Part shown: in pieces, positions 1-64,000 of the stretch | How the letters are laid out: each line of letters begins with the position of its first letter | How positions within the stretch are numbered: the first letter of the stretch is position 1 | NCBI RefSeq assembly: GCF_020745735.1 | Contig: NC_083402.1 | Coordinates: 8,198,004-8,262,003, forward strand | Length of the DNA: 64,000 nt | Reading direction: 5' to 3' | DNA from: Hemiscyllium ocellatum | Lineage: Eukaryota | The notes under the pieces: model-generated | Told to the model about the DNA's origin: nothing | What the model saw: only the letters and a program-made list of their open reading frames with translations | Databases searched by the model: none | Program-made: the position numbers and the translations under genes

Positions 1-976
1 AGGTGCTAATGGGAGGCCCATGCCCACAGAACCAGACCTCCAAAACTCGACACTGACACAGCACTGCCCTTAACACAGGAGGTTCTCTTAGATTATGTTC
101 AAGCCCTTAATAGAAGGATCACTTTAAACCATGATTTGGTAAAAGCTGCACTCCCCACACCACAGCAGGAACCACTTCACCCATTTAAACCTGGGGACTG
201 TGTAATGACACAGTCACTGCTGAAAGATGCTCTCTCCCCAAGGTGGAAAGGACGTACACAGGCTTGGTCTCAACCAGGACAGCAGTCAATCTCCAAGCGA
301 GACTGGAATGAACGCATGCGACCCAGTGCAAGAGGGTTGCACCTCCACAGAAGGATGACCAAGCCGGACAGGATGCAGCTCCGGACACCGTGGCAGGATC
401 TAGCTGCTCTCCACAGCCATCGGGATCATCACCGTCTGACATGCACATCACCACAGATCAGTAACAGGGGACACGGAGCGGAACACTTAATCCACCGTGA
501 GCTGCGGATGAACACTTTCCTTCACATGACCCACAGATATGCCCAGAAGGTGAACCAGACCGGCTGCTGGGTCTGTGCGCACGTCCCTGCCCATTTCCTC
601 TGGGGCATTCCTTTTAACATTGCAGAGATGGCAGAATGGTGGCTGGACCCGGACAGGTCCTCTGGGGTCACAACATTCAGCTGGGTAACCTCCTGGCTGG
701 GCTCATGGGGCACAGCCCTGCTGCAGGGTCTGATATCCCTTACTGACATTCTTGTGGGTATTGTAGTCCCGGTCATGGCCCTCCATGTGTGCTGCTCCTA
801 GTTGTGTACAGCATTGTTATCCCCTGCCCCCCTCACCACCCAGCTAATACAAGTCCACTGGAGTGACATCCAAACCCCTGACACAGTCTCCACCCTGCCA
901 GATTTAGACACACTGACAATCCCCCTGGATCTGGTACATTGCCCCCTTTTCAACCCATCTCAAAAAAATAGGGCAT
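1..976 (+). pseudogene. Class I ERV remnant, copy 1: integrase C-terminus, internally deleted env and polypurine tract
   Basis: HPFKPGDCVM...SPRWKG integrase tail; env SU motif NQTGCWVC; TM WVTSWLGSWGTALLQGLISL. Colinear with 61024-63154 apart from an approximately 1.15 kb env deletion. PPT-like AAAAAAATAGGG at 962-973. Confidence 0.85.
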
Positions 977-1161
977 TGTGGGAACAAGATCTGCCAACCT
1001 GCCCACCCACAGCACAGCCACATAAAAAGCACAGAAGCTAGCCTGCGAATCACAGAAATCAAGCCAGCCAACACATACAGAACACACCCACAATGCCCCA
1101 GCATTGGCGAAACAGACTAACAAAGAAACCGGGCATGGCCAAGCTACTCCCAGAGCAGAGA

Positions 1162-1258
1162 TTAGGCTCTGAAGGGCTCTGGCCCGAAATGTCGAATTTC
1201 CTGTTCCTGGCATGCTGCCTAACCTGCTGTGCTTTAACCAGCAACACATTTTCAGCTG
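1162..1258 (+). mobile_element. Penelope-like pseudo-LTR fragment inserted in LTR copy 1
   Basis: GAAGGGCTCTGGCCCGAAATGTCGAATTTCC...CAGCAACACATTT matches the PLE terminal repeat seen elsewhere in the window; absent at the equivalent site of copy 2. Confidence 0.75.
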
Positions 1259-1664
1259 AGAATACATTTCCCAAACAACCTTCACAGTAAAGCTCCCAGC
1301 CCCGGTGAGCACTGCGGTCCCAATCCCCGAAGGGCAGGCTCAAATCCCATTGAAATCGATACCGCAGAAACAAACAGGCAGACCGTGAGAACCAGGATGA
1401 CTTCACTCGCAGGAGGCGCACAACGGACACACCTGAGTGCCAGGAGAAGGGACATTTATACATATTCATGCAGACGGGAAATACAATGAAGACATTCTCA
1501 CCTACTCACGGAGATGGCTGGAATCTCCTGTGTCAATTACAAATGAATTGCTACTGAGGGATGCGTGATTAACTTCCATTCAGTTTATTCTTGTTTAAAT
1601 CGCTTTTTAATGTTCACCATTGTCCTGTAACTGCTTTACAGTTATGACCTTTGTGTTGTACCCC

Positions 1665-1670
1665 TATAAA
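1665..1670 (+). promoter_or_regulatory. LTR TATA box (also at 59181-59186 and 63741-63746)
   Basis: CCCCTATAAAGC is conserved in all three LTR copies near the end of U3. Confidence 0.7.
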
Positions 1671-1709
1671 GCATGCTGCATCTTCAGTTCTGGGAGTAGC
1701 ATTATGGTC

Positions 1710-1756
1710 ATCGCTTCTCGGCCTTTTGGCTAAGATCAAGTGTCTGTTCTTATCAG
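1710..1756 (+). ncRNA. RNU2: U2 snRNA 5' fragment (nt 1-52 minus 5 nt), not a complete gene
   Basis: ATCGCTTCTCGGCCTTTTGGCTAAGATCAAGTGT-CTGTTCTTATCAG equals vertebrate U2 nt 1-34 plus 40-52; AGTAT is deleted; no Sm site or 3' half. Confidence 0.93.
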
Positions 1757-1832
1757 GACAGGTGTCGAGGTGCGAGTCATCAGAGCTAGTAGAGATCATC
1801 GCTGGATCATGATCGTGATTGGACGTTGGAGG

Positions 1833-1852
1833 ATCGCTTCTCGGCCTTTTGG
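1833..1852 (+). ncRNA. RNU2: Second U2 5' fragment (nt 1-20)
   Basis: Exact ATCGCTTCTCGGCCTTTTGG. Confidence 0.85.
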
Positions 1853-2105
1853 TTCGGAAGATGTGTAGTTCCTGAGGACCAGAGGAAGAGATTCTGCGCG
1901 AGAGTTGCAGGTTCGATGCTGCGGATGTGCGCTGGCCGGGGAGAAACCATGGGGATCGTGTTGCGAGTCGTTGGAGCTGCTGGAGTCCATCACTGGATTG
2001 TGATTGGACGCTGGAGGATTGTTTGGTTGTGCTGACCTGCTCTTGGTGGATCTTTATGCTGGCTTCGGCCTAACGCCAATTCAGGTATCAGCCAACCTTA
2101 GAGCT

Positions 2106-4176
2106 ACGGCCTCAGCAGACGCTCACAGCCCTGGCCAGGGTATTCGCAACACAGTCAGGGTGACTGTGAAGAAGGTGGAGGAACACACACCAGTCGATCA
2201 GACAACTGTTTGTGAAGAAGATTTTGCTGGAGTGTTGTGGGTTTGTAGCTGCCCTCGAAGCCGATGTTGGGGGGATGAGACTGTCACACCCCTCCTTCTG
2301 GAATGTGCCTATGCAGAGGAAGTCTGGAGAGGAATGAAGTGGTATTTGTCGAGGTTCGTCCCGAGCAGCGCTGTGACGCGGGACTCCGTGTTCTACGGCC
2401 TGTTCCCCGGGATGCACACCGAGACGAACATCAACTGCGCCTGGAGGATCATCAACTCGGTGAAGGACGCTCTCTGGGTGGTCCGAAACCTGTTGATCTT
2501 CCAGCTGAAGGAGTTGACCCTGACTGAGTGTTGCAGACTGGCACATTCCAAGGTCCAGGACTACGTGTTGAGGGACGCGCTGAAGCTTGGGGGAGCTGCC
2601 GCCAAGGCGCGGTGGGGAAAGACCACCATATAACATCTGCCTGCCTAAAGAAGATGCGGGGGCCCTGCAGTCATTTGGGCTCTGCTGATGCCAGCTCAAT
2701 ATGTGAGTGAGAAATGCACAGATCTGTATGTAATAATGAAAGCTGTGTATGTAAATGTTGACATATGTATGGCATTACCAAATGTACAAGGTATCAAATA
2801 TTTTATGAATATTTTATGAATAAAGTATATTTTTGAAATAAAAAAAAGAAGATGTGTGGTGCCTACAGGATTTCCCTGGGGCAGGCTACTTCGACGTGAC
2901 CTTCAGGAGTGTGAAGCATTGTGAGCAGCTCCTGAAGGTCTTCAAGGAGAAGGAAGGGGAACCTCTGTTCTCCATCTTGTCGGTGGTCCCGTTGTGCGTG
3001 CTTCCTGTGCAAAGGAATAGGATTGTTACAATCCAAATGTACAACCCTTACATCCCAGCGGCAGATGTTCTCACCTTCTTGAAGAGGTATGTCCAGGTGG
3101 AAGGAGAAAGCACCGATGTGGTCAATCCTTTCGGGATCTGGACCAGCAAAAGACAGGTCAAGGTAACCCTGAGGGTCGATGGCAGCGGGAACATCCTCCA
3201 CCCATTCTCCAGCTTCGCCATCAGAGGAAGCAGAGGCTACCTGACGTACGCAGGGCAGCCGAAGGTATGCCGAACCTGCGGGAGGTCAGGCCACATGGCG
3301 GCCGACTGTCAGGTGACCGTATGCCGAAACTGCAAACAGGAAGGCCACCCGACCAAGGATTGTAAGGAGGCCAAGAACTGTAACCTGTGCGGAGAGGTGG
3401 GGCACATGTACAAGGCCTGCCCAAGACGAGGAGCTGCCACCTACGCACAGATGGCCGGAGGTGGCAACACGAGCCGTGGACCGACAAAGACCAGCAAGGT
3501 ACCACAACATAGCACGGAAACGGTGTCTGGAGGCACCCAGAAGGAGGAGCAGGCAGTAGCGGAGCAGACGGCAGACAGCAGGGAGGTGCAGCAGCTGATC
3601 CAAGCTCCGTCAAGGCAGATGGAGGAAATGGAATAGGAGGAATCAAAGGAGGCAGAGGATTGGATCACAGTCAAAAACAGGAAGAGGAAACCTCTCGGGG
3701 GCCCCAAAGCTACACAGAGAAGGGGGAAACGACACCTACCAGTCAAGGATACAGGCAGCTCTTTCGATGGTGAGGACGGGCGCAAGAAGGGTCGCCACCA
3801 GAGGAAGAGACAGAGCGCCGTAGGGAGAAAGGAGGGCAGCACCACCCAAGAAGGGAAAGACAATCCCTCTGTGGGGATGGGTAAAGGCCTCCTCCCACCC
3901 AGTGAGAACCAAGAGTTACCCACCAGCCCACAGCTCCAGGTAACTGGGAGAAGCGGTCCTTTGACAGCCCTGCTGTCAGATGGAGAACTGGACGGTGTCG
4001 ACCCTGGGCTCGACACAAAGACACCAGAGCGGGGAAATGGTTCCAGCATGGAGGCGGACAGCTACCTCAGACATGGGATGGTCCAGCAGTTTGCCGTCAC
4101 CACGGGGACGCACACAGCTACCCCAGAGGAGCAAGACCAGCAGCAAATGGACACTGTTAACCTTGTAAACAATTAA
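2106..4176 (+). pseudogene. Tx1 ORF1 (ZCCHC3-like RNA-binding protein with 3 zinc knuckles), disrupted
   Basis: Reconstructs as (M)ASADAHSPGQGIRNTVRV...FVKKILLECCGFVA|EDVWCLQDFPGAGYFDVTF...CRTCGRSGHMAADC, CRNCKQEGHPTKDC, CNLCGEVGHMYKAC. Lesions: ATG>ACG at 2106 (ATG intact in copy 2 at 63991), +1 G at 2208, insertion at 2251-2847, premature TAG at 3634. Confidence 0.88.
2251..2847 (+). mobile_element. 5'-truncated Tx1-clade 3' end (ORF2 C-terminus, 3'UTR, polyA) inserted into ORF1
   Basis: CPRSRCWGDETVTPLLLECAYAEEVW...WGKTTI* is a Tx1/L1 ORF2 Cys-rich tail; AATAAA at 2819-2824; A8 at 2840-2847. Confidence 0.88.
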
Positions 4177-4177
4177 A

Positions 4178-4630
4178 ATGGGGTTTAAAATTGCCAGCAT
4201 CAATGCGTGTAGCATCAAATCGGCTACGCGACGTGTATCTACAATGGCCTTCCTGGCCAGCGTTAAAGCCGGCCTCCTGTTTCTGCAGGAGTGTGGGATA
4301 CCGCACCTCAGCAGCTACAGGAGATGGTCAAGCTTGTGGGCCCATGGGCCGTCAGTTTGGTTGGGGGGCAACGATAGCCGCTCCTCCGGCCTGGGTATCC
4401 TGTTGCGAGGAAGCAACTTCACCATCTCCGAGGTTAAGGAGGTGGTGGGCGGGCGCCTCCTCGTCGCTGACGTTATGTACAAGAATGCTCCCCTGAGACT
4501 GATCAATGTATAGCCCCAGTGGGTAAGAGTGAACGGTTGGCCGTCCTGCAGCAGCTTCCACTGTTGCTGGCTACGTCCAGGCCGGTCATTCTGGCCGGAG
4601 ACTTCAACTGTATCATTGATGCAGATGGAC
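4178..4630 (+). pseudogene. Tx1 ORF2 APE endonuclease N-terminus
   Basis: IASIN, LFLQE, RLINV(Y)AP with a -1 frameshift near 4511, ILAGDFN. Confidence 0.9.
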
Positions 4631-5280
4631 AAGCCAGACCATGCAGCAGAGACAAGGAATAAAGTGTCTTGACAAAATGATAAAAAAGTAAAATGGAAGT
4701 CTTTACAAAAAACGATGCATTCACGGAGAGGATTCATGGAGAGGAAAGACTGAGCAGAATTTCAGAATCTGCTCCTGAATCAGGAAGGCTGACTGATGGG
4801 GACGGTGAAAGTTATGAGATGTCAGATAGTACAGACAAGCAGGAAATGTGGAGGGACCTGAAACCAGGAAATATAAATATTCTAGTCACCACCAAACCAC
4901 CAAGAGATTCAGGAAAACACAGGGAGTGGTTAGAATGTGGAACCTGCTCATACACCAAGTGGTTGACACAGTGACCATTGTTGTACTGAAGGGGAAGCTT
5001 GATTGACACTTGAGGGAGGAAGCAACAGAGGGAAGTGCTATCAAAGTGAGAAAAAGAAGGGTGGGGGAGGTGAACTTGTGCAGAACATGATCACCACCGA
5101 AGACCAACAGAATTCTTTAAGTTCCATTTACATGAGCCCTAATTTACTGTTCAGATTACTTCATATAATTCTCAACATGCTGAACATTTATTCGCTCATG
5201 GGGTGTAGGTGTTGTGAGCGGGTGTTACCTGTCCCACATTGTTGTCACAAAGGTACTAGCGAGCTGCTGCAGTCCATGAT

Positions 5281-6280
5281 GTTATAACCCTCACTAATAC
5301 TTCATTATTTTTATTTCATCAGTTTTACTTTGGAGCTGGGAATTAAAAAGATGTGAGCTGAAGGTGACAAACAAGTTTTGGTTTCTTTGTGAGGCCAGGC
5401 CTGGGAGTTATTTGCAGATTGCTTCTTGATCAGAACCATTCCATAGAACAGCTGTGAGCTGGGAGAGCAGTCTGTTTAAACAGATAGGAGATCTTGATCA
5501 GTAATTTTTTGTCATTACCTCGGTCAATCCGCTCTGGGGGAGACCTTCTGCTCAAGCTGATGGTAGATGTTGAATGGTAACTGGAACCTCGTGGGGAGAT
5601 GGTCAGGGTGAGAGCGAAAGTGCACAGTCTTGAACTGGATTTTGGTCTGTGTTTTCAGGGAGCAGGAGTTTTGATGCAAAAACATGAAGTTTTGAAAGGT
5701 CCCTGATTAACCTTCCATTGGCACCGATTGGAAGCTCAGAGAATAGAAATTCAGTTCCAAGTATTACTGAATTCATCGGAGTGAGCTGAAACTTTGGCCC
5801 TGATTGATATCTCCAGAAAGTCAAACTAAGAAATAATCATCTCTGCCTGTGGAACTAAAGTATCATGAGAACCACTTGCATGATCTGGCCAGTTTTGTTA
5901 TTGTATTTTATTTATCCCTTAACTGTGTTTTTCCATCCGTCAGTATTTTGTGTGATTGGGGCTGAAATGCAAAAAATTTGAAAATGGACACCGCCAACTA
6001 TTTTGCTCTTTACTTTTGTTGAAATTTCACTCTGCTACAGTCACTGTATTGTTCATAAATTGCTAAGTATTTTGTTTAAGCTACAAATCAGTGTCACTTG
6101 GGTCAATTCTGAAGGTCTTTGAAGACAAATGGAATTGAGAAAATTGGAGATGTGAATTCCAAAGAACAGAGAAAGAGATAGAAAGGGAGGAGAAAGAAAT
6201 AAATTTCAAAGAGCATTAAAGCTTAAAAAATTGGAACAAGAGTGGCAAGAGAAAGAAAAGTAACAGAAATTGAAAATGAT
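5281..6280 (+). mobile_element. Possible Gypsy-type LTR plus AG-rich gag start, degraded
   Basis: TGTT start and compositional resemblance to the 51460-55500 element; no clear protein motif. Confidence 0.3.
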
Positions 6281-58586: not shown

Positions 58587-59364
58587 TGTGGGAATAAAAG
58601 ATCTGCCATTCCACCCACCCACAGCATGGCCACTTAAAAACACAGAAGCTGGTCTGTGAATTACAGAAATCAAGTCTGCCAACACATACAGAACACACCC
58701 ACAATGTCCCTGTCTTGGTCAAACAGGCTAACAAGGAAACCAGACATGGCCAAGCTATTCCCAGACCAGAGAATAGACTTCCAAACAACTTTCACAGTAA
58801 AGCTCCTAGCCCTGATGAACACTGCGGACCCAATACCCAAAAGGCAGGCTCAATTCCCATTGAAACCAATAAACAAACAGGCAAAGCTAGAGACCCTGGA
58901 AGACTTCACTCACAGGAGGAAAGCAATGTACACACCTGAATGCCAGGAGAAAGGACATTTACACATATTCATGCAGATGGGAAATATAATGAAGAATCCA
59001 CTAGAAAACATTCTCACTCATTCACTGATATGGTTAGAATCTCCTGTGTCAATTACAAATGAGTTGCTACTGCTGGACACTTGATTAACTTCCATCAGGT
59101 TTATTATTGTTTTAATCACTTTACAATTCTCACCATTGTCCTGTAACTGCTTTACAATTATGACCTTTGTATTGTACCCCTATAAAGCATGCCTGCACCT
59201 TCAGTTCTGGGAAGAACATTCTGGCCATCTGTGCAGAGAATCAGTTCTGTGTCAGCCTGGTCAATTTCTCTTCCATGATATTATTTTGTTTCATAAACTG
59301 CCTGTCAATTTCACTGTGATTCACATTTGTGTTCACTGAATCATTGGTCAGAATTTCTCCGACG
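58587..59364 (+). repeat. ERV 5' LTR (complete U3-R-U5)
   Basis: TGTGGGAAT start directly after Gypsy pol sequence; homologous to both 3' LTRs; continues past the point where they are interrupted. Confidence 0.85.
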
Positions 59365-63154: not shown

Positions 63155-63788
63155 TGTGGGAACAAGAACTGCCAACCTGCCCACCCGCAGCACGGCCATA
63201 AAAAGCACAGAAGCTGGCCGGCGAATCACAGAAATCAAGCCTGCCAACACATACAGAACACACCCACAATGCCCCAGCATTGGCGAAACAGACTAACAAA
63301 GAAATCAGACATGGCCAAGCTACTCCCAGACCAGAGAATACATTTCCCAAACAACGTTTACAGTAAAGCTCCCAGCCCCGGTGAGCACTGCGGTCCCAAT
63401 CCCCAAAGGGCAGGCTCAAATCCCATTGAAATCGATACCGCAGAAACAAACAGGCAGACCGTGAGAACCAGGATGACTTCACTTGCAGGAGGAACTCAAC
63501 GGACACACCTGAGTGCCAGGAGAAGGGACATTTATACATATTCATGCAGACGGGAAATACAATGAAGACATTCTCACCTACTCGCAGAGATGGCTGGAAT
63601 CTCCTGTGTCAATTACAAATGAATTGCTACTGAGGGATGCGTGATTAACTTCCATTCAGTTTATTCTTGTTTAAATCACTTTTTAATGTTCACTATTGTC
63701 CTGTAACTGCTTTACAGTTATGACCTTTGTGTTGTACCCCTATAAAGCATGCTGCATCTTCAGTTCTGGGAGTAGCATTATGGCCATC
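63155..63788 (+). repeat. ERV 3' LTR, copy 2, truncated by the U2-Tx1 insertion
   Basis: Follows PPT AAAAAAAAGAGGG (63139-63151); TATAAA at 63741; ends GGCCATC. Confidence 0.88.
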
Positions 63789-63832
63789 GCTTCTCGGCCT
63801 TTTGGCTAAGATCAAGTGTCTGTTCTTATCAG
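63786..63832 (+). ncRNA. RNU2: U2 snRNA 5' fragment, copy 2, with the same 5-nt deletion
   Basis: Identical 47-nt sequence to 1710-1756. Confidence 0.93.
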
Positions 63833-64000
63833 GACAGGTGTCAAGCTGTGAGTCATCAGAGCTAGTAGAGATCATCGCTGGATCATGATTGGACGCTGGA
63901 GGATTGTTTGGTTGTGCTGACCTGCTCTTGGTGGATCTTTATGCTGGCTTCTGCCTAACGCCAATTCAGGTATCAGCCAACCTCAGAGCTATGGCCTCAG
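63833..64000 (+). mobile_element. Tx1 5'UTR and ORF1 start, copy 2 (runs off the window)
   Basis: Matches 1757-2115 minus about 190 bp; ATGGCCTCAG at 63991. Confidence 0.88.

Follow-up and report, generated by a model that had tools for sequence, protein, structure and literature searches.

A U2-headed Keno-type Tx1 LINE in a retroviral LTR of Hemiscyllium ocellatum: probable off-target insertion and later duplication

The stretch of DNA analysed here (the window) comprises 64,000 nt of Hemiscyllium ocellatum (NC_083402.1, positions 8,198,004-8,262,003 of the forward strand, assembly GCF_020745735.1), and its contig is labelled C2 (8198004-8262003) in our searches of the 3.98-Gb assembly. All window features given with coordinates below lie on the forward strand. 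The window opens with an interrupted provirus: a remnant of the proviral interior (10..801), an open frame corresponding to the C-terminal part of an integrase with a weak Pfam match below the cut-off (MLVIN_C, E 5.4e-4), is followed by an LTR at 977..1712. Alignment to an intact LTR shows that the latter retains U3 and the first part of R, while the rest of R and U5 are missing, and that a 92-bp repeat is inserted within it at 1170-1261. It is the 3' LTR, because the integrase remnant and the polypurine tract stand upstream of it. Its TATA box (TATAAA, 1665..1670) occupies the same place, with small variations, in the LTR relatives. At 1710, 45 nt after the start of this box, the sequence continues as U2 snRNA from nt 1 (Rfam U2 match with a 5-nt gap, 40.9 bits, E 1.1e-06). 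The score is below the gathering score of 46, and at the gathering threshold Rfam gave no match anywhere in the window.

The point of fusion can be read from a paralog (L092) that is 840 kb away, 95.5% identical and devoid of Keno sequence. The trinucleotide ATC at 1710..1712 is common to the LTR and to U2 nt 1-3; this overlap and the breakpoint are confirmed because the empty paralog continues into R-U5 past the same ATC, as do nearly all of the 17 other uninterrupted LTR loci past the same position. In the paralog the LTR AATAAA comes 63 nt beyond the junction position, and the break therefore falls in R. The preliminary description had proposed exactly such a junction, made through a 3-nt ATC in R at 45 nt after the TATA start, and the alignment, the Rfam match and the empty paralog bear it out. 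It had also pointed to an intact 5' LTR at 59221-59364; an intact LTR does exist, but its full span is 58587..59364 and it belongs to a duplicated provirus. This complete 5' LTR, identified by alignment, is 82-84% identical to the interrupted LTR (977-1712), with the alignment running to 1712/59229. The 5 bp preceding it at 58587 are repeated in the 3' flank of the empty paralog's 3' LTR, a shared target duplication which indicates that these LTRs bound one provirus.

Beyond the junction lie pieces of two Keno elements, one nested in the other. The first 47 nt (1710..1756) consist of canonical U2 nt 1-34 joined to nt 40-52; this sequence, head B, is the one with which copies of Keno subfamily B normally begin, and is followed by a shortened subfamily B 5' UTR (1757..1832), so that 1710-1839 corresponds to element B nt 1-126 (91.7% identity). 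A second head, head A (1833..1870), is composed of the first 38 nt of a variant U2 with three substitutions and forms the 5' end of the nested element. The subfamily A 5' UTR and the first ORF1 codons come next (1871..2252), and 1833-2252 matches element A nt 1-419 at 91.9%. The start codon of this ORF1 (2106-2108) reads ACG and the frame breaks off at about 2250. The head does continue into a 5' UTR and ORF1 of the Tx1 family as the preliminary description stated, but ORF1 is thus defective, and the second head at 1833 had been missed. A Keno 3' end with the ORF2 C-terminus, 3' UTR and poly(A) follows at 2248..2848 (element A nt 4770-5383), and the rest of ORF1, with one stop codon, resumes together with the start of ORF2 at 2851..4630, from an ORF1 self-insertion site to the breakpoint of a tandem duplication. 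Relative to intact copies the order is hence B nt 1-126, A nt 1-419, A nt 4770-5383 with poly(A), and nt 355-2141, where the ORF2 start carries another stop besides that in the ORF1 remainder. In this window copy the domains recognized by Pfam are those of ORF1 only.

The tandem duplication relates positions -64536 to 4630, counted from the window start, to 4631 to 63889 at about 95-97% identity. Its breakpoint lies at 4630/4631 and the duplicated length is about 62-69 kb; a third, inverted paralog is located near C2:7.33-7.39 Mb. The 3' LTR of provirus copy 2 (63155..63788, by alignment) is cut at the same point as that of copy 1, and a second copy of head B and 5' UTR follows at 63786..64000, from where the broken element extends past the window to about 70116. 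The order of pieces in copy 2 is B nt 1-359, nt 2330-5326 with poly(A), nt 358-2338 and nt 3341-4373, and no more Keno sequence was found in the following 43 kb. The nested piece of copy 2 begins at element nt 2330 and its host piece stops at nt 2338 (64138, 69085), a coincidence that hints at one rearrangement, not two independent events. Aligned over the 1765 columns of their ORF1 parts, the two copies show 156 differences, above the divergence of the flanks; 17 ORF1 differences are shared while 53 and 84 are private, and the 3' inserts share none. Both window elements are broken.

A genome-wide search for the junction pattern with at most two mismatches returned two true places (1710 and 63786) and one unrelated match. 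The preliminary description had called for such a search, and the junction is found twice, but both places stem from the one tandem duplication. One base near the TATA box is absent from both junction copies and present in the paralog; an assembly error is unlikely because the junction stands in two paralogs that share this 1-nt deletion. The LTR junction is one event, duplicated once with its surroundings. Non-CpG divergence amounts to 12.6% between the 5' and 3' LTRs, 2.5-3.3% relative to the empty paralog and 2.1% between the two junction copies, which suggests that the LINE entered a provirus of already considerable age, and that the landing fell between two duplications of similar age. 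The provirus is also asymmetric in CpG content, with 15-18 CpG in the 3' LTRs (977-1712, 63155-63788 and L092) and 1 in the 5' LTR, an asymmetry that predates the Keno insertion.

Intact U2 genes occur in tandem arrays on C1, C3, C5 and C1061 (48 scored matches), and the preliminary description had anticipated that the same Tx1 family would be found inside true U2 loci with the Keno 3' flank; the search recovered it there. In the C3 array (unit 7490 bp) a 5.3-kb element stands in place of a U2 gene, in the order U2 promoter, head B, ORF1 (492 aa), ORF2 (1135 aa), poly(A) and U2 from nt 38/39. Pfam places Exo_endo_phos, an N-terminal AP-type endonuclease, together with RVT_1 and zf-RVT in the intact ORF2, and zf-CCHC and RBD_ZCCHC3 (zinc knuckles and ZCCHC3-like RNA-binding domains) in the intact ORF1. 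Keno is described as a Tx1-clade AP-endonuclease LINE specific for U2 snRNA genes in the passages of PMC6136364, PMC4640811 and PMC4494074 that deal with it. The intact copies likewise have two ORFs with an AP-endonuclease and a reverse transcriptase, as well as zinc knuckles, and sit in U2 genes where they are followed by the Keno 3' flank (PMC6136364, in its outline of the family), here from about nt 39 in both canonical and variant U2, while the window copy is off target. Unlike Keno as so described, the present family is not strictly specific for U2, since 38 of the 60 exact B heads are found elsewhere in the genome; it further comprises two subfamilies with heads of two U2 types, and has a strong secondary insertion site in ORF1. 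Among 41 homologs none is named Keno; the nearest full-length matches, in amphibians and other records, are 42-45% identical, and short ORF2 pieces in a shark 74-83%. The SINEs interspersed in the sequence likewise look shark-like. A Keno-like, U2-targeting Tx1 LINE is supported on structure, insertion site and 3' flank. Utopia, which uses the same U2 site with a restriction-like endonuclease according to the account in PMC4640811, is ruled out by the N-terminal AP-type endonuclease; weakened specificity is described there for Utopia, and off-target copies for U2-specific elements.

We counted head B with an exact 29-nt pattern spanning the 5-nt deletion and the head-to-UTR joint, for which the control gave 0 matches. 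All 60 genome-wide matches were examined, and 22 are in U2 genes (7 behind canonical promoters, 14 behind variant promoters and 1 in a third U2-like gene), the remainder being the 2 window copies and 36 dispersed ones, among which two are mutual duplicates and three are triplicates. The dispersed copies start at U2 nt 1 in 9 of 36 cases, the others beginning a few to about 20 nt in, and in 8 of 36 the two ends share matches of at least 6 nt, most of them clear target duplications. LTR sequence stands in front of none of the 36 dispersed heads (best match to the R stub, 10 of 20 nt). Head A has 91 exact matches, of which, judged by coordinates, 0 are in canonical arrays, 23 belong, or probably belong, to the variant array and 68 are elsewhere; 29 head-A loci were read, with 17 behind variant promoters, 0 behind canonical ones and 12 dispersed. 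Four dispersed A copies at unrelated sites (L019, L020, L024 and L026) carry the same base change at U2 nt 1.

We consider it quite probable that the composite at 1710 is what remains of a Keno-type Tx1 LINE that targets U2 genes but here landed off target, carrying the U2 head with which the family normally begins, and that a single chance insertion into R of an old 3' LTR was followed by duplication of the neighbourhood. That a U2-headed Keno from a Keno-interrupted U2 gene had inserted off target was already proposed in the preliminary description, and agrees with intact copies at U2 nt 38/39 bearing the predicted 3' flank and with off-target copies that begin at or near U2 nt 1. It had also conceded that the U2-like 47-mer might simply be the fixed 5' terminus of a family that never enters U2 genes. 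The first half holds for the whole subfamily (60 exact matches), but the second does not, as the family does occur in U2 genes.

The structure of the copies suggests how such heads may be maintained. Elements inside U2 genes would be transcribed from the U2 promoter into an RNA whose first base is U2 nt 1. During insertion into a U2 gene, the head cDNA would pair with the upstream part of the target and take over its 5' end, so that the new copy stays behind a U2 promoter, whereas elsewhere in the genome the end of the cDNA would be attached through microhomology, in this case ATC. On this model head A would reflect blunt joining where the target is cut, and head B would be the relic of a target duplication reaching to nt 52; with the loss of nt 35-39 it would have shed the cut site and most of the sequence that pairs with the branch region. 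In this shortened form, head B and the first element bases are predicted to form a 7-pair hairpin (z -3.6 for 53 nt). The landing in the LTR probably removed what lay downstream, both LTR and flank; the two copies would later have been broken by deletions and by the arrival of further Keno copies, and the LTR TATA box would stand before the head by accident, with no trace of having driven transposition.

The loss of the downstream LTR could have come about differently if Keno landed downstream of the LTR and a later deletion, repaired by microhomology, fused the LTR to the head. The rest of R-U5 and the paralog's downstream flank were not found in 80 kb upstream and 49 kb downstream of the window, nor genome-wide by a second close match among 40 scored of 3167 candidates, and no target duplication survives, all of which such a deletion would explain. 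However, the breakpoint lies exactly at U2 nt 1, the start of 9 of the 36 dispersed insertions, and a random deletion has no reason to stop there; we therefore regard a later deletion as improbable. Direct insertion into R is the reading that we retain. As the 3' end of the insertion and its target duplication are lost, the primary insertion junction is one that we infer. A one-off template switch from LINE RNA to free U2 snRNA was likewise weighed. It gains something from the presumed U1 piece that precedes the U2 head at three loci (described below), since such additions evidently happen here. It would resemble the U6-L1 chimeras, and snRNA-LINE chimeras are known from the examples given in PMC4494074. 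Nevertheless, 60 copies, including those in U2 genes, have one and the same 5-nt deletion and head-to-UTR joint, which contradicts a one-off switch and leaves it next to no probability.

A bolder claim of the preliminary description was that the fusion formed a special three-way composite in which a retroviral promoter replaced the lost U2 promoter, the LTR U3 and TATA box driving, now or formerly, an LTR-U2-Keno transcript independent of any U2 locus. Capture of a promoter by a retroposon has a parallel in SVA_F1, which uses a host promoter. In its favour, the junction lies in R behind an intact TATA box, before the LTR AATAAA and in sense orientation, and the 3' LTR retains 15-18 CpG compared with 1-13 in 17 other family loci, which could reflect low methylation in the past. 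However, the empty paralog has the most CpG (18), and the CpG richness therefore predates the insertion; CpG transitions make up 9 of the 22 differences between the two copies, pointing to methylation since, and the 3' LTR was already diverged when it was hit. No daughter copies were found either: at up to two mismatches the junction occurs only twice, in elements that are both broken, and a 5' extension by a captured promoter is seen in 0 of 36 dispersed heads. Nor does the Keno family seek out this LTR. Among 18 other LTR loci (269 candidates, 40 scored, 20 fetched) 16 lack Keno sequence and 2 have short weak matches, and a preference for the LTR is accordingly rejected. A search for RNA records covering 1300-2250 listed none, which weighs neither for nor against transcription. 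The composite with a working swapped promoter finds no support and is very unlikely. The LTR fusion itself matters little, being one of dozens of stray copies, and is likely an ordinary accident produced by a chance landing.

A second type of U2 gene bears on the origin of the heads. Variant U2 genes form arrays on C111 and C497 with a unit of about 2.02 kb, and the same promoter was also seen on several small contigs. The variant is full-length, 81% identical to the canonical U2 and scores 155.9 bits on the Rfam model (L085:148-339); its Sm site is kept, its 5' stem is still predicted to fold, and its promoter region differs from the canonical one. It departs from canonical U2 at nt 23-30 and nt 38, positions which presumably affect helix Ia, where U2 pairs with U6, and the last part of the branch-pairing sequence. 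We looked for a compensating U6 variant in the 30 U6 loci with the highest scores and saw none, although a ranking of this kind is biased towards canonical copies. Head A is identical to nt 1-38 of this variant U2, while head B, with canonical nt 23-30, occurs behind variant promoters with variant 3' flanks. These canonical bases came with the element, because the variant target could not supply them, and canonical heads behind variant promoters constitute our strongest evidence for the head mechanism suggested above. On such sequence relationships, it is likely that the element RNA carries the head along and that the head supplants the 5' end of the target, by analogy with R2. The array copies may be descended from few insertions; for the 14 B copies behind variant promoters, these may have been spread by array turnover, and the small contigs are possibly redundant.

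The head might instead be a fossil kept for target homology, if an internal promoter in the 5' UTR allowed dispersed copies to act as sources without any outside promoter. The many headed copies outside arrays (38 of 60 for B and about 68 of 91 for A by coordinates) agree with such a promoter, as do the four dispersed A copies sharing the change at nt 1. But head A equals nt 1-38 of the variant U2 and, in the loci read, 17 of 29 stand behind variant promoters and 0 behind canonical ones. PMC4494074 states that internal promoters have not been reported for snRNA genes, although that bears on the head only and not on the UTR. We give an internal promoter only a small chance, and keep to transcription from U2 promoters as the preferred reading.

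Taken further, the two diverged U2 types, with their own arrays and promoters, may both be parasitised by Keno, the RNA of each subfamily starting with the 5' end of its home gene. Subfamily B would overwrite variant nt 1-38 with a canonical head that lacks the cut site and the branch-pairing sequence, and would so become immune to re-insertion. The variant U2 itself might be a germline or maternal component of the spliceosome, like that of zebrafish, and the heads would then record which U2 promoter is active in the germline. We offer this tentatively, as possible rather than probable. Zebrafish possesses maternal and somatic snRNA types, whose mRNA-binding sites are said not to differ in the portion of 10.1101/858944 that compares them.

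Several known systems resemble the present one in part. In R2 elements with upstream 28S sequence in their RNA, the 5' junctions are uniform, junction deletions and duplicated downstream target are inherited, and microhomology is used when no heteroduplex forms, as summarized in PMC3774820. Keno here shares with R2 a target-derived 5' head, uniform 5' junctions, inherited deletions or duplications, and microhomology joining if the head cannot anneal. In R2, by contrast, the endonuclease is of the restriction-like type and a Pol I co-transcript is cleaved by a ribozyme, while the Keno RNA would start at the snRNA start site. The MutsuDr subfamilies in the maternal and somatic 5S rRNA arrays of zebrafish (PMC5340908, in the section concerned) are similarly subfamilies of a site-specific LINE that are linked to two types of one multicopy RNA gene; however, these are described as restricted to their gene type, whereas subfamily B is found in both arrays. 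The crocodilian SINEU are associated with Tx1-Mar, Tx1-8_Crp and Tx1-4_AMi, and PMC4494074, in its treatment of these families, proposes their transcription from a flanking promoter and notes that some Keno-related Tx1 families prefer LTR elements. SINEU also have U1- or U2-derived heads on elements mobilised by Tx1, but they are short and non-coding, whereas here the head belongs to a 5.3-kb two-ORF element, which rules out that it is a SINEU, and this Keno family shows no preference for this LTR family.

The family provides sequence evidence for an AP-endonuclease LINE that would be co-transcribed from an snRNA promoter and attach through the 5' end of a host RNA, a mechanism worked out for R2, and it also reveals a divergent U2 array. 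U2 heads, an addition that we take to be U1, and a shorter derivative without ORF2 are all present in this genome, and the family thereby shows a plausible route to snRNA-headed retroposons such as SINEU. Neither a shark U2 variant nor an exchange of heads between U2 types came up in our literature search; Repbase and the first description of Keno, reportedly by Kojima and Fujiwara in 2004, lay outside this search, and the novelty is hence provisional.

Some further arrangements were noted among the family members. ORF1 contains a self-insertion hot spot at element nt 348-360 (window 2848-2860), and in 19 of the 36 dispersed B loci, as in both window copies, a Keno poly(A) runs into ORF1 at this point. 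The bases upstream of this hot spot resemble U2 nt 32-38, and the 3' junctions spread over about 10 nt. In three paralogs on C185 (L143-L145) an added 5' piece precedes the U2 head, and the combined sequence has entered a further Keno copy at its ORF1 hot spot; we take this 28-nt piece to be the first 28 nt of U1 snRNA. A derivative of about 2 kb (L134; also L111, L118 and L143-L145) combines head B, an ORF1-like region of about 77-79% identity and the family 3' tail, and lacks ORF2; in L134 it is flanked by a 16-bp target duplication. Finally, at L126 and L162 on C48 the third U2-like gene, with a different promoter and 3' part, is interrupted by a full-length B element.
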